Source of the DNA: Laetmonice hystrix
Taxonomy: Eukaryota
DNA length: 60,000 nt
Assembly: GCA_965235115.1 (NCBI GenBank)
Contig: OZ249436.1
Span: 7,256,001 to 7,316,000, forward strand
Direction of reading: 5' to 3'
The position numbers and the translations under genes were made by a program. Below, in pieces: positions 1 to 46,371 of the stretch. Position 1 is the stretch's first letter; each line of letters opens with the position of its first letter. The notes under the pieces were generated by a model. The model made no database searches. It was not told the origin of the DNA and saw only the letters and a list, made by a program, of their open reading frames with translations.

Positions 1-3000
1 CAATGACTGTTTGCCGTAAAGGTTTAGTTAACAATGACAAATGGCGTTGTACGCCTTTTCTATATCAGATATCCCATCCCCAAGTAAGAAACAAAGATAG
101 AAAGAGTACAGAGATATTGCAGACAAGAAACACCAGGGTGCAGCGCAGCTCTACTGTAGCGGCACGGGGGCGGCGACTGCACTGCCATCTTCCGGCTACC
201 GGTGGAATCACCACGTATACCTGGCCGGGCTGGCGGGCACCTGTGGCTCTTAGGTTAAAGCAATGAGAAGCGAAAAATGGCTACATTTCGGATACGTCAA
301 ATTGAAACTACGCCCCCCAAAGTTATGATTCTTAGGCCAGATGTATAACTGTCAAACGTATAGGTCTCGTACGTTCGCTACAGATATATGGTTGTGATGT
401 GTATACTTCCCATTTGAGTATTTCTCCAGATTTTAACATTAGATGCTCCTCGCCAGTATCTTTCATTTCCGCTACCTCGCTGTAGTGTTTGCATGGCTAC
501 TAGGCAAGTCGGTAAGATGTAGGGACTTGTCACTCTACTGGTTGGCCGCCCACACTGCTTGGCCTCACAGTGTACTGTTTGGCCTGACTGTACTCTTTGG
601 CCTCACTGTAGTGTTCGCTTGGGTGGTAGGCCAGCCAGTACCTTGTAGCGATTCCTCACTGTACTGTTTGTCCTCCCTGTACCGTTTGCTTGAATACAAC
701 AGTAGCCATTAATATAGGGACGCCTCATGTTTCATGTTTCCATGCCTTTATTGTCCAGGAGGCAGGCCATACGTTTCGTCTCTCATCTACTCCCATCTAA
801 TCTGTGTCCCCTACAGACCATCTGTAAGCGTGCGACAACGTTGTCAGGTCGTCCCAATGACTGTTTGCCGTAAAGGTTTAGTTAAAAATGACAAATGACG
901 TTGTACGCCTTTTCTATATCAGATATCCCATCCCCAAGTAAGAAACAGAGAAAGAAAGAGTATTGCAGACAAGAAACACCAGGGTGCAGCGCAGCTCTAC
1001 TGAAGCGGCACTGGGGCGGCGATTGCACTGCCATCTTCCGGCTACCGGTGGAATCACCACGTTTTCTTGCCCGGGCTGGCGGGCACCTGTGGCTCTTAGG
1101 TTAAAGCAATGAGAAGCGAAAAATGGCTACATTTCTTATACGTCAAATTAAAACTACGCCCCCCAAAGTTATGATTCTTAGGCCAGATGTATAACTGTCA
1201 AACGTATAGGTCTCGTACGTTCGCTACAGATATATGGTTGTGATGTGTATACTTCCCATTTGAGTATCTTCTCCAGATTTTAACATTAGAGGCTCCTCGC
1301 CAGTATATTTAATTTCCCCTACCTCATTGTAGTGTTTGCATGGGTACTAGGCAAGTCGGTAAGATGTAGGGACTTGTCACTCTACTGGTTGGCCGCCCAC
1401 ACTGCTTGGCCTCACAGTGTACTGTTTGGCCTGACTGTACCCTTTGGCCTCACTGTAGTGTTCGCTTGGGTGCTAGGCCAGCCAGTACCTTGTAGCGATT
1501 CCTCACTGTACTGTTTGTCCTCCCTGTACCGTTTGCTTGAATACAACAGTAGCCATTAATATAGGGACGCCTCATGTTTCATGTTTCCATGCCTTTATTG
1601 TCCAGGAGGCAGGCCATACGCTTCGTCTGATATCATCTACTCCCATCTAATCTGTGTCCCCTACAGACCATCTGTAAGCGTGCGACAACGTTGTCAGGTC
1701 GTCCCAATGACTGTTTGCCGTAAAGGTTTAGTTAACAATGACAAATGACGTTGTACGCCTTTTCTATATCAGATATCCCATCCCCAAGGAAGAAACAGAG
1801 AAAGAAAGAGTATTGCAGACAAGAAACACCAGGGTGCAGCGCAGCTCTACTGAAGCGGCACGGGGGCGGCGACTGCACTGCCATCTTCCGGCTACCGGTG
1901 GAATCACCACGTTTTCTTGCCCGGGCTGGCGGGCACCTGTGGCTCTTAGGTTAAAGCAATGAGAAGCGAAAAATGGCTACATTTCTGATACGTCAAATTA
2001 AAACTACGCCCCCCAAAGTTATGATTCTTAGGCCAGATGTATAACTGTCAAACGTATAGGTCTCGTACGTTCGCTACAGATATATGGTTGTGATGTGTAT
2101 ACTTCCCATTTGAGTATCTTCTCCAGATTTTAACATTAGAGGCTCCTCGCCAGTATATTTAATTTCCCCTACCTCATTGTAGTGTTTGCATGGGTACTAG
2201 GCAAGTCGGTAAGATGTAGGGACTTGTCACTCTACTGGTTGGCCGCCCACACTGCTTGGCCTCACAGTGTACTGTTTGGCCTGACTGTACCCTTTGGCCT
2301 CACTGTAGTGTTCGCTTGGGTGCTAGGCCAGCCAGTACCTTGTAGCGATTCCTCACTGTACTGTTTGTCCTCCCTGTACCGTTTGCTTGAATACAACAGT
2401 AGCCATTAATATAGGGACGCCTCATGTTTCATGTTTCCATGCCTTTATTGTCCAGGAGGCAGGCCATACGCTTCGTCTGATATCATCTACTCCCATCTAA
2501 TCTGTGTCCCCTACAGACCATCTGTAAGCGTGCGACAACGTTGTCAGGTCGTCCCAATGACTGTTTGCCGTAAAGGTTTAGTTAACAATGACAAATGACG
2601 TTGTACGCCTTTTCTATATCAGATATCCCATCCCCAAGTAAGAAACAGAGAAAGAAAGAGTATTGCAGACAAGAAACACCAGGGTGCAGCGCAGCTCTAC
2701 TGAAGCGACACGGGGGCGGCGACTGCACTGCCATCTTCCGGCTACCGGTGGAATCACCATGTATACCTGGCCGGGCTGGCGGGCACCTGTGGCTCTTAGG
2801 TTAAAGCAATGAGAAGCGAAAAATGGCTACATTTCGGATACGTCAAATTGAAACTACGCCCCCAAAGTTATGATTCTTAGGCCAGATGTATAACTGTCAA
2901 ACGTATAGGTCTCGTACGTTCGCTACCGATATATGGTTGTGATGTGTATACTTCCCATTTGAGTATCTTCTCCAGATTTTAACATTAGATGCTCCTCGCC

Positions 3001-6000
3001 AGTATCTTTCATTTCCACTATCTCAATGTAGTGTTTGCATGGCTACTAGGCAAGTCGGTAAGATGTAGGGACTTGTCACTCTACTGGTTGGCCGCCCACA
3101 CTGCTTGGCCTCACAGTGTACTGTTTGGCCTGACTGTACTCTTTGGCCTCACTGTAGTGTTCGCTTGGGTGGTAGGCCAGCCAGTACCTTGTAGCGATTC
3201 CTCACTGTACTGTTTGTCCTCCCTGTACCGTTTGCTTGAATACAACAGTAGCCATTAATATAGGGACGCCTCATGTTTCATGTTTCCATGCCTTTATTGT
3301 CCAGGAGGCAGGCCATACGTTTCGTCTATCATCTACTCCCATCTAATCTGTGTCCCCTACAGACCATCTGTAAGCGTGCGACAACGTTGTCAGGTCGCCC
3401 CAATGACTGTTTGCCGTAAAGGTTTAGTTAAAAATGACAAATGACGTTGTACGCCTTTTCTATATCAGATATCCCATCCCCAAGTAAGAAACAGAGAAAG
3501 AAAGAGTATTGCAGACAAGAAACACCAGGGTGCAGCGCAGCTCTACTGAAGCGGCACTGGGGCGGCGATTGCACTGCCATCTTCCGGCTACCGGTGGAAT
3601 CACCACGTTTTCTTGCCCGGGCTGGCGGGCACCTGTGGCTCTTAGGTTAAAGCAATGAGAAGCGAAAAATGGCTACATTTCGGATACGTCAAATTAAAAC
3701 TACGCCCCCCAAAGTTATGATTCTTAGGCCAGATGTATAACTGTCAAACGTATAGGTCTCGTACGTTCGCTACAGATATATGGTTGTGATGTGTATACTT
3801 CCCATTTGAGTATCTTCTCCAGATTTTAACATTAGAGGCTCCTCGCCAGTATATTTAATTTCCCCTACCTCATTGTAGTGTTTGCATGGGTACTAGGCAA
3901 GTCGGTAAGATGTAGGGACTTGTCACTCTACTGGTTGGCCGCCCACACTGCTTGGCCTCACAGTGTACTGTTTGGCCTGACTGTACCCTTTGGCCTCACT
4001 GTAGTGTTCGCTTGGGTGCTAGGCCAGCCAGTACCTTGTAGCGATTCCTCACTGTACTGTTTGTCCTCCCTGTACCGTTTGCTTGAATACAACAGTAGCC
4101 ATTAATATAGGGACGCCTCATGTTTCATGTTTCCATGCCTTTATTGTCCAGGAGGCAGGCCATACGTTTCGTCTATCATCTACTCCCATCTAATCTGTGT
4201 CCCCTACAGACCATCTGTAAGCGTGCGACAACGTTGTCAGGTCGTCCCAATGACTGTTTGCCGTAAAGGTTTAGTTAACAATGACAAATGGCGTTGTACG
4301 CCTTTTCTATATCAGATATCCCATCCCCAAGTAAGAAACAAAGATAGAAAGAGTACAGAGATATTGCAGACAAGAAACACCAGGGTGCAGCGCAGCTCTA
4401 CTGTAGCGGCACGGGGGCGGCGACTGCACTGCCATCTTCCGGCTACCGGTGGAATCACCACGTATACCTGGCCGGGCTGGCGGGCACCTGTGGCTCTTAG
4501 GTTAAAGCAATGAGAAGCGAAAAATGGCTACATTTCGGATACGTCAAATTGAAACTACGCCCCCCAAAGTTATGATTCTTAGGCCAGATGTATAACTGTC
4601 AAACGTATAGGTCTCGTACGTTCGCTACAGATATATGGTTGTGATGTGTATACTTCCCATTTGAGTATTTCTCCAGATTTTAACATTAGATGCTCCTCGC
4701 CAGTATCTTTCATTTCCGCTACCTCGCTGTAGTGTTTGCATGGCTACTAGGCAAGTCGGTAAGATGTAGGGACTTGTCACTCTACTGGTTGGCCGCCCAC
4801 ACTGCTTGGCCTCACAGTGTACTGTTTGGCCTGACTGTACTCTTTGGCCTCACTGTAGTGTTCGCTTGGGTGGTAGGCCAGCCAGTACCTTGTAGCGATT
4901 CCTCACTGTACTGTTTGTCCTCCCTGTACCGTTTGCTTGAATACAACAGTAGCCATTAATATAGGGACGCCTCATGTTTCATGTTTCCATGCCTTTATTG
5001 TCCAGGAGGCAGGCCATACGTTTCGTCTCTCATCTACTCCCATCTAATCTGTGTCCCCTACAGACCATCTGTAAGCGTGCGACAACGTTGTCAGGTCGTC
5101 CCAATGACTGTTTGCCGTAAAGGTTTAGTTAAAAATGACAAATGACGTTGTACGCCTTTTCTATATCAGATATCCCATCCCCAAGTAAGAAACAGAGAAA
5201 GAAAGAGTATTGCAGACAAGAAACACCAGGGTGCAGCGCAGCTCTACTGAAGCGGCACTGGGGCGGCGATTGCACTGCCATCTTCCGGCTACCGGTGGAA
5301 TCACCACGTTTTCTTGCCCGGGCTGGCGGGCACCTGTGGCTCTTAGGTTAAAGCAATGAGAAGCGAAAAATGGCTACATTTCTTATACGTCAAATTAAAA
5401 CTACGCCCCCCAAAGTTATGATTCTTAGGCCAGATGTATAACTGTCAAACGTATAGGTCTCGTACGTTCGCTACAGATATATGGTTGTGATGTGTATACT
5501 TCCCATTTGAGTATCTTCTCCAGATTTTAACATTAGAGGCTCCTCGCCAGTATATTTAATTTCCCCTACCTCATTGTAGTGTTTGCATGGGTACTAGGCA
5601 AGTCGGTAAGATGTAGGGACTTGTCACTCTACTGGTTGGCCGCCCACACTGCTTGGCCTCACAGTGTACTGTTTGGCCTGACTGTACCCTTTGGCCTCAC
5701 TGTAGTGTTCGCTTGGGTGCTAGGCCAGCCAGTACCTTGTAGCGATTCCTCACTGTACTGTTTGTCCTCCCTGTACCGTTTGCTTGAATACAACAGTAGC
5801 CATTAATATAGGGACGCCTCATGTTTCATGTTTCCATGCCTTTATTGTCCAGGAGGCAGGCCATACGCTTCGTCTGATATCATCTACTCCCATCTAATCT
5901 GTGTCCCCTACAGACCATCTGTAAGCGTGCGACAACGTTGTCAGGTCGTCCCAATGACTGTTTGCCGTAAAGGTTTAGTTAACAATGACAAATGACGTTG

Positions 6001-9000
6001 TACGCCTTTTCTATATCAGATATCCCATCCCCAAGGAAGAAACAGAGAAAGAAAGAGTATTGCAGACAAGAAACACCAGGGTGCAGCGCAGCTCTACTGA
6101 AGCGGCACGGGGGCGGCGACTGCACTGCCATCTTCCGGCTACCGGTGGAATCACCACGTTTTCTTGCCCGGGCTGGCGGGCACCTGTGGCTCTTAGGTTA
6201 AAGCAATGAGAAGCGAAAAATGGCTACATTTCTGATACGTCAAATTAAAACTACGCCCCCCAAAGTTATGATTCTTAGGCCAGATGTATAACTGTCAAAC
6301 GTATAGGTCTCGTACGTTCGCTACAGATATATGGTTGTGATGTGTATACTTCCCATTTGAGTATTTCTCCAGATTTTAACATTAGATGCTCCTCGCCAGT
6401 ATCTTTCATTTCCGCTACCTCGCTGTAGTGTTTGCATGGCTACTAGGCAAGTCGGTAAGATGTAGGGACTTGTCACTCTACTGGTTGGCCGCCCACACTG
6501 CTTGGCCTCACAGTGTACTGTTTGGCCTGACTGTACTCTTTGGCCTCACTGTAGTGTTCGCTTGGGTGGTAGGCCAGCCAGTACCTTGTAGCGATTCCTC
6601 ACTGTACTGTTTGTCCTCCCTGTACCGTTTGCTTGAATACAACAGTAGCCATTAATATAGGGACGCCTCATGTTTCATGTTTCCATGCCTTTATTGTCCA
6701 GGAGGCAGGTCATACGTTTCGTCTATCATCTACTCCCAAGGCCAGATGTATAACTGTCAAACGTATAGGTCTCGTACGTTCGCTACAGATATATGGTTGT
6801 GATGTGTATACTTCCCATTTGAGTATTTTTCCAGATTTTAACATTAGATGCTCCTCGCCAGTATCTTTCATTTCCGCTACCTCGCTGTAGTGTTTGCATG
6901 GCTACTAGGCAAGTCGGTAAGATGTAGGGACTTGTCACTCTACTGGTTGGCCGCCCACACTGCTTGGCCTCACAGTGTAGGTAGGCCTACTGTTTGGCCT
7001 GACTGTACCCTTTGGCCTCACTGTAGTGTTCGCTTGGGTGCTAGGCCAGCCAGTACCTTGTAGCGATTCCTCACTGTACTGTTTGTCCTCCCTGTACCGT
7101 TTGCTTGAATACAACAGTAGCCATTAATATAGGGACGCCTCATGTTTCATGTTTCCATGCCTTTATTGTCCAGGAGGCAGGCCATACGTTTCGTCTATCA
7201 TCTACTCCCATCTAGTCTCTGTGCCCTATAGGGCCTACATAGATCTACCATCTGTAAGCGTGCGACAACGTTGTCAGGTCGTCCCAATGACTGTTTGCCG
7301 TAAAGGTTTAGTTAACAATGACAAATGACGTTGTACGCCTTTTCTATATCAGATATCCCATCCCCAAGTAAGAAACAGAGAAAGAAAGAGTATTGCAGAC
7401 AAGAAACACCAGGGTGCAGCGCAGCTCTACTGAAGCGGCACGGGGGCGGCGACTGCACTGCCATCTTCCGGCTACCGGTGGAATCACCATGTATACCTGG
7501 CCGGGCTGGCGGGCACCTGTGGCTCTTAGGTTAAAGCAATGAGAAGCGAAAAATGGCTACATTTCTGATACGTCATATTGAAACTACGCCCCCAAAGTTA
7601 TGATTCTTAGGCCAGATGTATAACTGTCAAACGTATAGGTCTCGTACGTTCGCTACCGATGGTTGTGATGTGTAGGCCTATAGTATAGGCCTACTTCCCA
7701 TTTGAGTATCTTCTCCAGATTTTAACATTAGATGCTCCTCGCCAGTATCTTTCATTTCCACTATCTCAATGTAGTGTTTGCATGGCTACTAGGCAAGTCG
7801 GTAAGATGTAGGGACTTGTCACTCTACTGGTTGGCCGGCCACACTGCTTGGCCTCACAGTGTAGCCTACTGTTTGGCCTGACTGTACCCTTTGGCCTCAC
7901 TGTAGTGTTCGCTTGGGTGGTAGGCCAGCCAGTAGATTCTACCTTGTAGCGATTCCTCACTGTACTGTTTGTCCTCCCTGTACCGTTTGCTTGAATACAA
8001 CAGTAGCCATTAATATAGGGACGCCTCATGTTTCATGTTTCCATGCCTTTATTGTTCAGGAGGCAGGCCATACGTTTCGTCTATCATCTAGGCTACTCCC
8101 ATCTAATCTGTGTCCCCTACAGACCATCTGTAAACGTGCGACAACGTTGTCAGGTCGGCCCAATGACTGTTTGCCGTAAAGGTTTAGTTAACAATGACAA
8201 ATGACTTTGTACGCCTTTTCTATATCAGATATCCCATCCCCAAGTAAGAAACAAACAAAGAAATAGTACAGAGATGTTGCAGGCAAGAACACAAGGGTGC
8301 AGGGCCGCTCTACTGAAGCGGCGGCGGAGGCGGTGTCACATCGAAAACTGACCCCCGTGGTAAATTGACCGCCGGGTCACTTTTCCACAGTGTAAAAGTG
8401 ACCCTCCCTGTATAGTAATCTGACCATCAAGAAAAAGTTAAGACATTTCTTGTTCCGTTTATTTTTTATATTTATGGAAAGGATACAAAAGGATGTTTTT
8501 GTTCACATGTCGTACTCAATTTATCAATCTGCGCAATTTGCAAATAGTGTTAATTCAAATAGACCTAACCCTAAACTTACCTTAACCCTAAGCGAGGAGT
8601 GTAGAGTCTACATGTAGCACCCGTATCTGCTGGTTTGCCCTTTTAAATTTGCGCAAGTCGCGAAAGTGAGTACTGCTGAACAGGTGTCAAAACTGTTGAA
8701 AAATACCAAGAAGCAGGAAAATGACGATAGATTCCAATGTAAAGACGTTGTGCCTAATATCTATGTTATTCAACCTGGGTCATTTTTCCACAGGGGAGTT
8801 CACTTTTCCACTGTGGTAAAGTGACCCGGGGGTCGATTTACCATGTGGTAAATTGACCCCCGGGTCACTTTACCACGGGGTCACTTTACCACATCACAGC
8901 GGCGACTGCACTGCCATCTTCCGGCTACCGGTGGAATCACCACGTATACCTGGCCGGGCTGGCGGGCACCTGTGGCTCTTAGGTTACTGTTTGGCCTGAC

Positions 9001-9235
9001 TGTACTCTTTGGCCTCACTGTAGTGTTCGCTTGGGTGCTAGGCCAGCCAGTACCTTGTAGCGATTCCTCACTGTACTGTTTGTCCTCCCTGTACCGTTTG
9101 CTTGAATACAACAGAAGCCATTAATATAGGGACGCCTCATGTTTCATGTTTCCATGCCTTTATTGTTCAGGAGGCAGGCCATACGTTTCGTCTATCATCT
9201 AGGCTACTCCCATCTAATCTGTGTCCCCTACAGAC
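1..9235. repeat. Satellite array of ~850-bp monomers with a 4247-bp 5-mer higher-order repeat; continues off the left edge and degenerates at the right end
   Basis: The anchor caatgactgtttgccgtaaagg recurs at 1, 855, 1705, 2555, 3401, 4248, 5102, 5952, ~7285 and 8161. Variant monomers recur exactly 4247 bp apart (ORFs 443/4690, 895/5142, 1332/5579, 1738/5985). Deletion junctions lie at ~6738 and ~8985. Confidence 0.98.
8334..8898. mobile_element. Non-autonomous TIR element (Ginger-like MITE) inserted into a satellite monomer
   Basis: Interrupts the monomer sequence ...ggcgg|cgactgcac. It begins TGT and ends ACA, with a 4-bp duplication GCGG at 8330-8333 and 8899-8902. Imperfect TIRs are made of gtggtaaa(g/t)tgaccc sub-repeats. 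TGT..ACA ends with 4-bp TSDs are typical of Ginger DDE transposons; the family call is an inference. Confidence 0.8.
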
Positions 9236-9508
9236 AAGAAAATTCGCCCCTTCGTCTGAGAGCCGACGAATTGTCCCTCTCAGATGCCAGGAAATTGCAT
9301 CTTTGGGAGCCCTGGGGTATTTACCCCCCCCCCCCCAAAAAAAGTGATTGATGGTGCCCTTTTCTGGTTGATGGTGGCCTTTTTATAAGAGACTTATAAG
9401 GAAGTGTCACCAAAGACGGGCATCACTCGATTGGGCATTGACCTCTAGGCGCCCTAATGGAATGTTACCCCCCCCCCCCCCAATCGCAAACAGGTTGCGC
9501 CGGCCCTG
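9236..9508. mobile_element. Truncated DNA-transposon/MITE fragment abutting the end of the array
   Basis: Poly-C tracts followed by the terminus-like ...ttgcgccggccctg. No matching left end or TSD was seen. Confidence 0.35.
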
Positions 9509-10020
9509 AAATGTGTTGCCACTCCGACTTCTAAAGGCGAAGTAAAACAAGGGAATTTGACTCAAATATCCTAAGCATTTTCTCCGAGATGAGCGAAGAT
9601 CCGACTTAAAAAATCCGACTTATGCATAGATTTTCACAGAGTAAAACATTATAAATCATCCGTACCACCAAAGCCCTTTGTCCGAGATAAGCAAAGATTC
9701 GACTTATGCTAGCTTTACTACAAAACGGGGCCATCCATAAATAGAAAAGTTTAGAAGAGTCGATCAAACATAAATCATCCTCTTTTTTTTTAAATAAAAA
9801 GACTTTTTCTGATAACCCGACATTTCTGAAGGGTGGAGCGGGATTCTGAAATGTCGGGTTTCCAGTTTAATACAACGATCCGATACATTGTCCCTCTTTT
9901 CTTTCATGCGGAATGTTAATCTATGTTTTCTTCTGCTTTTCTTCAACATTTTGCATGGTTATGACTGATTTAGGCCTAGGTATGTAGCCTACATGTACTT
10001 TGTAAGGCATCATAACTCCG

Positions 10021-10136
10021 TGCGCCCTCTGGTGCAAGCATGCGTGTCTGGTCGGCCCCCTGGTGGCAAAGGCAGAAACTGAGAAACTGAGAAAGTAGGT
10101 TGCTGTAGTTGCCTCGTAGGAAAATTCTTTGGTCTG
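10021..10136 (+). promoter_or_regulatory. Candidate promoter and non-coding first exon of the RNA-binding-protein gene, with two CTCF-like motifs
   Basis: tgcgccctctggtg (10021-10034) and cggccccctggtggc (10053-10067) match the reverse complement of the CTCF core CCACCAGRGGGCG. A possible donor ctg|gtaaaa lies at 10136/10137. The TSS cannot be proven from sequence. Confidence 0.35.
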
Positions 10137-10778
10137 GTAAAATTTACTCTCATCAAAAAACTAAAAATATCGATCTTAATTTTAAACTTTATATAAATAT
10201 AAAAACAATACCATAATATGGCTCAAAGATGTTAACATGTAAAGAAACAAATTCATATGATAGACTCTTTCCAATCGAAAGGTAGGCAAGCAGAGAGTGC
10301 GTGCACCGGCTTTGTCGGCCATTTGTATTGGATGCTGGGTAAGAAATGTAATGTTTGTATCTTTATGGAAAGAAACCGAATCCTACCTGTGATGCTGTAA
10401 CATTGATGCTTAACTTTTCTGTCATCTACACCATATTGGTGTCGGGGTTGGAAAGAGAAATACCATGTGCAGGAAACAGAAAGTGTGGAGGAGCTGTGGC
10501 ACAACGTTCCACGACCGCGGGAACTGTGTGGGTTTCCTACAACAAGGGGTTGGGGCCCCTCGGGCCTCTGTCTATTGTTTTATTGGTAGCGTGGAATGAC
10601 ATAAATTCAGGCCTGCTAGGGGCCGGGCAGGGTCGCCCGTCAGACATGGCGCGAACCCGTGGGGAAAAATGACGCTCGCGAGTGTTCAGTCGTAGCCAGG
10701 ATTTATAGTCGATTCGCCGTTTCGACCTAGTCCTACACAGTTAGACGTGGACACCGTTAAACACTAACTTCGCGTTAA

Positions 10779-12496: not shown

Positions 12497-13714
12497 TGTT
12501 ACAACCGCTAATGTAATAACGCCCACTATTGTAATAACTGGGGTGCTAGGGGGGTACCAGGGAAGTACCACCAGAGTACCGGACAGGACCAGGGGAGCAT
12601 TTTTGGGGTACCCTCTGAGTACCCTCTGGGTACCCCCTGGGTACCCAGAGGGTACCAACCCCCCTGGGTACCCAGAAGGTACCAACCGGGGGTACCAGGG
12701 AAATACTAGTGGAGTACCGGACAGGACCAGGTGAGCATTTTGGGGGTACCCCCTGAGTACCATCTGGGTACCCCCTGGGTACCCTCAGGTACCGATCTGG
12801 TCGGTAGCCCTTGAACAAAGTTTTATTACAATAGCGGTTGCGAATTCTGACGAACGCTACCGCTATTGTAATAACTGGGGTGCTGGGGTACCAGGGAAGT
12901 ACCACCAGAGTACCGGACAGGACCAGGTGAGCATTTTGGGGGTACCCCCTGAGTACCATCTGGGTACCCCCTGGGTACCCTCAGGTACCGATTTGGTCGG
13001 TAGCCCTTGAACAAAGTTTTATTACAATAGCGGTTGCGAATTCTGGCGAACGCTACCGCTATTGTAATAACTGGGGTGCTAGGGGGTACCAGGGAAGTAC
13101 CACCAGAGTACCGGACAGGACCAGGGGAGCACTTTGGGGGTACTCCCTGAGTAGCACCGAAATGGTCGGTACCCTTTGAACAAAGTTTTATTACAATAGC
13201 GGTTGCGAATTCTGCCGAACGCAACCGCTATTGTAATAAAACTTTGTTCAAAGGGTACCGACCAGATCGGTACCTGAGGGTACCCAGGGGGTATCCATAT
13301 GGTACTCGGGGGGTGCCCCCAAAGTGCTCCCCTGGCCTGTCCGGTACTCTGGTGGTACTTCCCTGGTACCCCCCTAACACCCCAGTTATTACAATAGCGG
13401 TTGCGTTCGCCAGAATTCGCAACCGCTATTGTAATAAAACTTTGTTCAAGGGCTACCGACCAGATCGGTACCTGAGGGTACCCAGGGGGTACCCAGATGG
13501 TACTTAGGGGGTACCTCCAAAATGCTCACCTTGTCCTGTCCGGTACACCAGTAGTATTTTCCTGGTACCCCCCGGTTGGTACCCAGAGGGTACTCAGAGG
13601 GTACCCCAAAAATGCTCCCCTGGTCCTGTCCGGTACTCTGGTGGTACTTCCCTGGTACCCCCTAGCACCCCAGTTATTACAATAGTGGGCGTTATTACAT
13701 TAGCGGTTGTAACA
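12497..13714. mobile_element. Foldback (near-complete palindrome) non-autonomous transposon, 1218 bp, 6-bp TSD
   Basis: Termini TGTTACAACCGCTAATGTAATAACGCCCACTATTG...CAATAGTGGGCGTTATTACATTAGCGGTTGTAACA. ATCCCT is duplicated at 12491-12496 and 13715-13720. Internal ~196-bp GGTACC-rich modules reverse orientation at a central 45-bp stem (13163-13207/13220-13264). Confidence 0.92.
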
Positions 13715-43501: not shown

Positions 43502-46371
43502 TGGGCCACTATACCTGGTGTAGCAGACTGTTACCCATCTGTCTGTCGTTCTTCCTGCTAGTCTACAAGTAATGCCATACCATCTAGCTTGAATCAAACT
43601 AAATAATACTTCTACTAATAATAATAACAATAAATAGGGATGGAATTATTGTTTCTACAACGTCTGCTCAAAGAGTGTTCATATACATTAAAATATATTA
43701 ATTCCTGGAAAGAAATGTACTCCAACCTTTCCTAACGTAGGCTGACAAACTAAGCTAAAACTAAGTTAAGCAAATCTAAATGTTTAGTCGCATGAATTAT
43801 CTGTTGATTAACGTACACCATGGCTAAAGCCACTCTGAAGGGCTGCTCACAGCTACAGCTAGGCCACACGACGCTGCAGAAACCTTTGTGAACTTAACGC
43901 TCAGTCATAATTTCCAAATCAACACATAGTACACAGCTGAAACCACACTAACAAATTAGATTTCTTTAACGCGAAAATTTCAAGTCATACTTGCACAGAT
44001 TTTTCACAACTGGTGTTCGTAAAAACTGGAATGGGAGCACGAGACCAGTATTCCACATTTTACCGTATCGAATATTTTCTGTTCCAATTGTTACTCGTCA
44101 ATGACGTTCAACAGACCTGTTATTGGAATCTTGCAATATGGGCCTAAAACTAGATGCACTAGACACTTAAAAATAGAAAAGTACTAGCTGGAAATGTTTC
44201 GAGGAAGACTGTATACAATTTCTATGATAATGAAGTGGCTTCAATGTGTAATGTTTTTGACTTAAAAATCAAGCCTAATTTAGCCTTAGCTTGAGTGTCT
44301 TTTCGATGGCGATGGACCAACGGCTACATTTCATCGGGAGGATAAGTGTTCGGCCTTCGACATTTTGAGCCTGAACTTGTGCTCCGCTACTGCAGTCTGG
44401 AATTCTTGTGTAGTCATTGAGATAGCGCGAGGGAATGTTCACACATTGTATGTCTGTAAATGTATGTGTAGTATGACATTGGCTGCCCTCAATGACAGCG
44501 GCTGGACTCATATTGTATCTACTCTGTCCACACCGCAATCCTCCAGCCACTAGTCTAAGCCTTGCCAATCAGGCCGGTGACAATAAGTCCACAGTATACA
44601 TTTCTTGGTATGTTTCTGTCCGCGCAATAACTACCCCTCAGGGTTTATTTGAGAAAGGTTCTCAGAGTGGACTCTCTGAATTCCTAGACCCTGTCCTATA
44701 ACGCCATGAGTTCTGCCGCGTAGTCTGTCGTTATCAGATGGAGTCTGGTTTCCGAATGATGCCAGGGCTTTGTGCAGCGGATATATATAATAATTTCTCA
44801 AATAAAACACGAGGCATTCTTTGGAACCAACTTTCCCTGTCGACGGTTCATATCGGGTATGGCTTGGGGACACATTGGCGTGGAACTGTTCCTATGGCGA
44901 CACTGGCGAAACAACCTCTGCTGTTCCAACTGCGACAACTCTGGCCAAGTGAGCACAGTTCGGTGACACAAAGCAGTAGCAGTAGCAGCAGATGGGATAC
45001 AAAAACCTGGCGTTTGATACGGGCAGCTTCACCAACTCGATTTGATGGCCTCTGTGTCTCCCTTTGTCTACACATTTCACCCTAACTGAGATTCTACCTC
45101 TAGCCTGATGCTGCCAACCTCCCCCGGACACTGGACGCGGCCGGTTCCCGACACACCCATCGGTGAAGAAACCTCCTCAGACTTTGCCAAGCTTTGGACC
45201 CTGAACTTTTTTTTGAGGGCAAGTGGGTAAAATTGCCAAAGTCTCAGGAAAAAATAATATATATGAAATGTGTTTTGGTGATGACGACACCTACCTTTGG
45301 TATCATCATCCGCTAACACACTTACTGTGCAGAGTGCCACACTCACACTGTTCGTTACCAGTTGGACCATTGTTAGTACGCCGGCCCACAACACAGTCGG
45401 GTCCTCTATGCATACTGGTGCACTTTTTATATATCTATATATATTACACACGCACACTCTTCTGTATAACCAACTCCGGCAGCCGACCTGATTGTTGACC
45501 TCAGATCGTTAGGTCTACATGTTGACAACCCTAACATCCAATGTCGAGGGTTGGAGAGTTGTTTCCACAAAGTCCTTGTGGTATTTTTGGCCTCATATAT
45601 TTTGCGTCTGTGGGATTCCTAAAGTACCAAGTATTGGGTTATGTCCCTCTAATACTGTACTTGTACAGTTACTAGCATCAAGCAGGCACAGTGAACGGTG
45701 AGTGAGGAGACAGAAACTCTGTCCATTGTCTCCTCGACTAACTCATGTCTCGGTATTCTGTGCCTCGGTTCTAAGGGATCCAACATCCCTACGTCTGAAT
45801 GGTCACAGTCAAAGCCTTCACCTTAGGCCTTGAAATAAGATTAGCCATTCCGACCGTTTGGTTTTATAGAGTCGATTCTCATTCTTCTTCCTGCCAGACT
45901 ACTTCAGAATGGAGCAGACATGTAACAAATTGTCTTCGGTTATTTCACATCTTTCTCTGGTCTCTGAGGAGGGTGTTGGCAGAGCCCGTGGCTCAGCACT
46001 AAGGCTCATGCTAACAGTAAGTAACCACTAGAGGGCTGGGCGACCAGTGCTGCCCCCTGGTGGTCGAACCCGAAGTTCTGCCAAGGGAGGATTGCACAGT
46101 CACATTACATTTAAGAACACTGCAGGATCCAGAAAATCACATGTTGTTGAGCAACAATTTTAAAAAGTTTACCACAAACTGACTGTCTACATGTGAACTC
46201 TGTGCATGGTTAGACCACCGCAATCCTGGCAGATCATACTGAAGGAAATATAACGATAACTGTGACCTTTCAAAAGTCACCAGATGACCTTTATAAGATC
46301 ACTCAGGACACTTCGCAAGGTCAGCTTCCTTGGATGAACAGCTAGACCAACCAAAGCTTCACTCCAAAGCT

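Follow-up and report, generated by a model that had tools for sequence, protein, structure and literature searches.

Excision of cut-and-paste DNA transposons leaves short footprints by a mechanism that is textbook knowledge. For Sleeping Beauty, the available text of PMC6943129 gives the footprints TACAGTA and TACTGTA, and describes a footprint as the first or last 2–4 bases of the element. A Tc1 scar, taCATGta, is quoted from another work in the accessible part of PMC3520976, and what is available of PMC9976928 reports footprints of 0–4 bp for the pogo element Passer. Excision normally leaves no countable record. A multi-copy satellite supplies the empty alleles, so that footprints in its monomers can be read directly, sorted by the donor tip that they match and compared with point substitutions.

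Here we describe such a satellite in Laetmonice hystrix, in a stretch of 60,000 nucleotides (assembly GCA_965235115.1, contig OZ249436.1, positions 7,256,001 to 7,316,000, forward strand) that we call the window. A preliminary description of the window had attributed a cluster of small insertions at TA to the coming and going of TA-targeting cut-and-paste elements. Our analysis supports that reading: a single TA becomes TA, insert and TA, and elements with GG and GAG tips occur in the same genome. We consider it likely that the insertions were left by the excision of pogo-superfamily DNA transposons whose target is TA, some two tip bases remaining on each flank before the ends were joined, although the link from these donors to the scars is one that we infer.

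Results

The window opens inside an array of ~850-bp monomers, which is ~36 kb long in all and starts 26.8 kb before the window, so that no more than its right end is included. By monomer alignment, this right-hand part spans 1..8333 on the plus strand, with monomers starting at 1, 855, 1705, 2555, 3401, 4248, 5102, 5952, 7285 and 8161 and a part-monomer at 6739–7284 that follows an internal jump. At the jump (6738/6739) the array steps from monomer position ~794 back to ~334; the scarred zone starts right after it, and its right side begins between the T and the A of a native TAGGCC. The last monomer is split by an unrelated 565-bp inserted element at 8334..8898, which has TGT..ACA ends and imperfect inverted repeats, is accompanied by a GCGG duplication of 4 bp, and resembles Ginger-type elements. 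Terminal satellite fragments, also on the plus strand, follow at 8899..9236. A large nested inverted repeat with GGTACC-rich units of 11, 22 and 196 bp lies at 12530–13670. That the monomer might be an RNA gene is ruled out by the lack of any Rfam match up to E 1 in 3300–5200 and of any tRNA in the window.

Every window monomer was aligned to an inner monomer. Relative to the inner monomers, all seven of the expansions first described are present, and, as had been stated for the early part of the window, there are none in 1–6977. Each of the seven sites expands a TA, and the empty allele occurs in sister monomers in 7/7 cases. At 6978..6989 the monomer site cacagtgTActg carries the stack TA-GG-TA-GGCC-TA, which would take two events; other monomers have GGCC, GCC, GAC or TA there, and the copy at 7862..7868 has TA-GCC-TA, so that one monomer position does hold different inserts, a GG stack and GCC. 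A second stack, TA-TA-GGGCC-TA at 7227..7237, would again require two events. The scar TA-GATC-TA at 7240..7247 had been thought to replace a GA. However, the plain-TA allele CCTACATACCATCTGTAA is present in 4 inner upstream monomers of the array (649 matches genome-wide, the first 100 of them listed), and thus a TA was expanded here as well. At 7673..7693, TAGGCCTA-TAGTA-TAGGCCTA replaces TATA, adding 17 letters in at least two GGCC events; this monomer site is the one most frequently hit in other arrays. The remaining scars are TA-GATTC-TA at 7933..7941 and TA-GGC-TA at 8089..8095, where two upstream monomers and a copy on contig C19 have GGCC. A copy of the 8089 scar lies at 9200–9206 in the terminal fragments, as noted earlier.

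Stacked scars and the variety of inserts per site support the earlier suspicion of repeated hits. At least 10 events at the 7 scarred sites stand against 5 substitutions in 1.4 kb. From the frequency of six scar words in the 200-kb sample described below, 0.77 sites would be expected in 1,422 bp, where seven are present (Poisson p 2e-5). Scar words outside the array were confirmed at 9971, 9985, 31363, 33086, 33103 and 49619. The first two belong to a stack at 9971..9997 in flanking DNA, made up of TAGGCCTA, TAGCCTA and TACATGTA, for which no empty allele was found in the assembly.

Contigs from four sequencing runs were aligned to 6700–10300, X1–X3 representing one sample, which may be the source of the assembly, and X4 a second organism. 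The main satellite contig of X4 is without the 8089 insert, an allele that is consistent with the short form being the older. In X1–X3, thousands of satellite copies mask the edge alleles; a single-copy contig, with 5 gaps in all, differs at 9983–9994, which hints at polymorphism of the 9971–9997 stack and at a possible allele with other scars.

The insertions had been described as confined to the edge monomers, which does not hold. TAGGCCTA (TA-GGCC-TA) occurs in 5/33 upstream pieces of the array, three at the 6978/7862 site (the closest of them 1.7 kb ahead of window position 1) and two at the 8089 site, and the scars in these five pieces go back to two events copied by duplication. Other arrays are scarred too. 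In those at 21.5, 51.9 and 60.06 Mb of contig C1 the scars lie in many or all monomers, and some arrays are fixed for a scar; at one monomer site, the two letters of the short allele are replaced by three or more in 4,346 copies (100 listed). In the 219 monomer pieces of the fetched stretches, the inserts at TA are TA, GG, GGC, GCC, GGCC and GGGCC, together with stacks, and further GATC, GAC, GACTC, GAGTC, GAATC, GATTC and CATG. The inserted letters are stereotyped regardless of the flank and do not copy it.

The genome searched comprises 627 Mb in 35 contigs. The enrichment expected of genome-wide scarring is present: TAGGCCTA has 168,757 copies, compared with 3,469 for its reversed control, although the first matches run at satellite spacing, so that part of this number reflects array amplification. 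In 20 evenly picked 10-kb stretches (200 kb), 16 words of the form TA-palindrome-TA were compared. Strong excess was seen for GGCC (58 vs 2.6), GATC (19 vs 2.4), CATG (22 vs 5.7) and the TATA insert, TATATATA (27 vs 9.8), and weaker excess for AGCT (6 vs 1.9) and ATAT (13 vs 4.9). In the same sample TAGGGCCTA occurred 9 times vs 1.5, TAGGTA and TAGACTA showed no excess, and TAGGCTA only a slight one (23 vs 17). A transposon-biased sample of 408 kb gave the same leading words, with TAGACCTA in excess as well (26 vs 9.7). Scars are thus common both genome-wide and inside arrays, and at the edge a known process is locally concentrated.

At the right edge of this array, two scarred pieces (1.4 kb) hold 7 scarred sites and 5 private substitutions, against no private scars and 27 private substitutions in 35 interior pieces; for these post-hoc groups p is 5e-5, or 1e-3 when 2 shared interior events are counted. 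The left edge (five pieces) has 18 private substitutions and one TA doubling, and differs from the right edge with p 2e-3, again for post-hoc groups. Across the arrays examined, which were not randomly picked, the ratio of private scars to private substitutions is 28/292 within 2.6 kb of an array end and 2/180 inside (p 3e-4). This test is conservative, since both inside scars come from the final two monomers ahead of a 2-kb gap.

It is possible, though on the whole unlikely, that the edge is not hit more often, and that weak homogenisation at the ends of arrays has simply left it with older monomers. Weaker homogenisation at the ends of satellite arrays is described in the available text of PMC12692304, and private substitutions are indeed denser at the edges examined here (292 in 35.8 kb, compared with 180 in 128 kb inside). 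The contrast also shrinks when this array and the site by which arrays were found are left out (14/258 vs 2/153, p 0.06), when only long arrays are taken (5/120 vs 2/133, p 0.27), or when only the initial 6.7 kb of the window serves as the comparison (p 0.2). However, age alone does not account for an edge at which scarred sites outnumber private substitutions while the interior has 27 such substitutions and no private scar. The right edge is therefore a one-sided local hot spot and not simply an old edge. The cause is probably that border DNA is easier to reach, or that it is repaired less often off a neighbouring monomer; we regard both as candidate causes. Scars showed no link to CpG richness in the 200-kb sample. 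Nor were they linked to CTCF-like words: 3, 4 and 9 of 294 lay within 150, 300 and 1000 bp (p 0.34–0.94). Pairs of such words occur at 10021–10066, 25–60 bp to the right of the 9971–9997 stack, and at 46025–46066.

Profile searches for donor elements returned at least 151 matches to DDE_Tnp_4, at least 57 to DDE_3 and at least 150 to DDE_1; the best 30 loci per family were examined, with 20 wider stretches each for DDE_Tnp_4 and DDE_1. Genome-wide, there are 197 GG-tipped ends (control 0) and 156 GA-tipped ends (control 12). The commonest tip classes are GG, GA and CA, the last comprising the Tc1 and Tigger types, and to these three classes correspond the excess palindromes GGCC, GATC and CATG. 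The donor had been proposed to have GGC...GCC termini. A family of this kind exists and is of the ISL2EU type, but the elements that best suit the role of main donor have GGG(G/T)..(A/C)CCC ends, from which two letters of each tip would stay behind. The proposal also included a donor class tipped GA..TC, and this was found in the form GAG..CTC when loci were scanned for TA-flanked inverted repeats; one such element has a 692-residue DD35D frame. GAG..CTC tips predict scars of GACTC and GAGTC, both of which are seen in monomers. GATTC and GAATC would require GAA tips, which 1/100 listed GA ends has.

Copies with GG and GA tips contain long open DDE_1 frames with a DD35D or DD36D triad. PF03184 (DDE_1) scored above cut-off in 5/5 proteins scanned, of which 3/5 have HTH_psq, 1/5 has HTH_Tnp_Tc5 and 2/5 have neither domain; the catalytic triad is DD35D in 4/7 proteins and DD36D in 3/7. 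Terminal inverted repeats measure 24–27 bp (4/4 elements), and complete copies are flanked by TA on both sides. On sequence resemblance to the elements treated in the available parts of PMC7386202 and PMC7325037, the donors would belong to the pogo superfamily and appear Fot-like.

Among distinct element ends, 6/82 lie at a scar TA, compared with 0.97% of all TA (p 1.6e-4). The GA-tipped element L195 has a GGCC/GGCCC stack at its flank, and L315 has one GA tip and one GG tip. A G before or a C after the TA is found in 16/18 complete GG elements (39% expected, p 2e-5), which is compatible with GTAC-like sites; for monomer TAs the same context does not separate hit (10/14) from unhit (30/49) positions (p 0.55). 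No pogo element lies inside a monomer among the 55 end loci checked, partial searches found no site filled in one copy and scarred in another, and a pattern search for an element at the 6978 site, made in one orientation and blind to GGGT tips, returned only the window's own scar.

Several observations concern the elements themselves. The near-identical pogo copies L181–L184 begin with two, three or four G (GG, GGG, GGGG), as though the cut were made at varying positions. Behind the DDD domain, the transposase frames of L181, L187, L194 and L198 have long in-frame tandem repeats of low complexity, whose sequence differs from family to family and whose copy number is variable. Whole elements of other types do occur in monomers, at G000:C7:25487315-25489592, C1:60032126-60034550, C1:50598921-50601120 and C1:14323040-14325297. 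The one on C7 lies at a monomer TA and is L31-like, its two tips being unequal (CTC, GAC); among the others are a TAC..GTA type that has duplicated 6 bp and a TGT..ACA type of 2.2 kb.

Not every TA element qualifies as a donor of the GG series. Classic Tc1 and Tigger elements were rejected, since their CAG..CTG tips fit TACATGTA only, and so was the L31-like family, whose CTC..GAC tips could account for TA-GAC-TA but for none of the GG scars.

Discussion

Excision of pogo elements could produce the scars as follows. Insertion at TA of an element tipped GG..CC or GA..TC would duplicate that TA, in keeping with the TA seen on both sides of complete copies. By analogy with Tc1/mariner, excision would leave 3′ overhangs of tip bases. 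Two GG overhangs cannot pair, so both would be filled in, yielding TA-GG-CC-TA; trimming, or a cut of three bases, could give GG, GGC, GCC or GGGCC, and GA (GAG) tips could give GATC, GAC or GACTC. Each of these forms is seen in monomers. A new scar adds a TA, which may be hit again to form the stacks observed; the 6/82 ends suggest a preference for such sites. Turnover of the array would then drop or copy scarred monomers, as the shared interior scars and the arrays fixed for a scar indicate. The proposal that concerted evolution erases scars inside the array is therefore half of the picture: it removes scars, but it also spreads them until whole arrays are fixed. The balance of ~169,000 scar words to a few hundred listed ends weighs against this account in that very high turnover would be needed, although array amplification makes up part of the number.

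The ISL2EU-type family offers another source for the GG-type scars, but an improbable one. Its members are elements of the TA-GGC...GCC-TA form with a transposase, as sought in light of the preliminary description: copies of ~7–11 kb end in TA|GGCCRTTCTYAATATT and encode DDE_Tnp_4, HTH_Tnp_4 and YqaJ, with the DDE transposase and a YqaJ frame in 3/3 elements scanned. With GGCC..GGCC ends, 3-base GGC overhangs might pair through GC and resolve to GGCC, GGC or GCC, and in the 219 monomer pieces GGC and GCC scars are indeed common whereas GGG and CCC scars are not seen. Yet the family has only 11 ends genome-wide, and it leaves the GA series unexplained. Its context also misfits. ATA stands beside the tip in 9/11 ends and the other two are without TA, whereas the scarred satellite positions 6978/7862, 7933 and 8089 read GTAC or CTAC. 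The flanks of the family, ATA..TAT, can be read as a duplication of AT or of TA, and the published ISL2EU target is A|AT|T in the available text of PMC4482050. Loci L119–L138 comprise many ISL2EU-type families with open frames, several of them flanked by ATA..TAT; some have unequal tips (GAC/GAG, CAC/GAC), and some loci lie in tandem arrays with a period of 6–13 kb.

In a further account no whole element was ever present, and short palindromes are written at a broken TA by a repair polymerase or during an attack that the transposase aborts. This would suit the roughly thousandfold excess of scars over element ends and the finding, in partial searches, of no filled allele at any hot site, but it is about as improbable, because the inserted letters are not copied from the flanks and strong excess is limited to palindromes that match element tips in the genome.

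Excision of pogo elements thus remains our preferred account. A broader view, to which we give somewhat less than an even chance, is that a few hundred elements are a leading source of small insertions in this genome, through a fast cycle in which pogo elements insert, leave and are drawn to their own scars, so that at hot spots footprints outpace point mutation while arrays record, erase and amplify them. If the excision account is true, short words like TAGGCCTA and TAGATCTA, here and in genomes of a similar kind, are mutational scars and not binding motifs, transposition is far more frequent than one would judge from copy numbers, and genome sequence reveals how an unstudied pogo group cuts.

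No report of GG- or GA-type scars at such scale was found in a literature search that mostly did not extend to subscription papers. The scars resemble Tc1/mariner footprints in that a TA is duplicated around 2–5 letters equal to the tip bases of a TA-flanked element, and they share the both-tips form TA-xy-y'x'-TA with the Tc1 scar; TACATGTA itself is in excess here and has been inserted into a monomer. They differ in that the tips are GG or GA rather than CA and that the both-tips form dominates. Moreover, the nematode scars are described as rare, as far as the available text goes, whereas here they occur once per 3.7 kb, are stacked, and are spread by satellite amplification.

The putative donors are like Fot and Fot-like elements in having an HTH_psq and/or HTH_Tnp_Tc5 DNA-binding domain. 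Most of those elements have inverted repeats of 40–60 bp, according to the accessible part of PMC7386202; the repeats here are 24–27 bp, 3/7 proteins are DD36D, and long low-complexity repeats stand behind the catalytic domain. The other candidate family shares with ISL2EU elements of the PHIS superfamily, as described in the available text of PMC4482050 and PMC9179366, two frames, DDE_Tnp_4 with HTH_Tnp_4 and a YqaJ exonuclease; one family here begins with GG(CC), but its ATA..TAT flanks, few copies and sequence context misfit most of the satellite scars.

The gathering of private variants at the array edge has a parallel in the satellite array ends of PMC12692304, as far as that text is available. 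As in the rice excision catalogue, of which PMC4423477 was available in part, excision is read by comparing filled, empty and scarred alleles. The rice excisions described there mostly left deletions or filler DNA; those of the present satellite would have left short, stereotyped scars, which at the array edge outnumber private substitutions.
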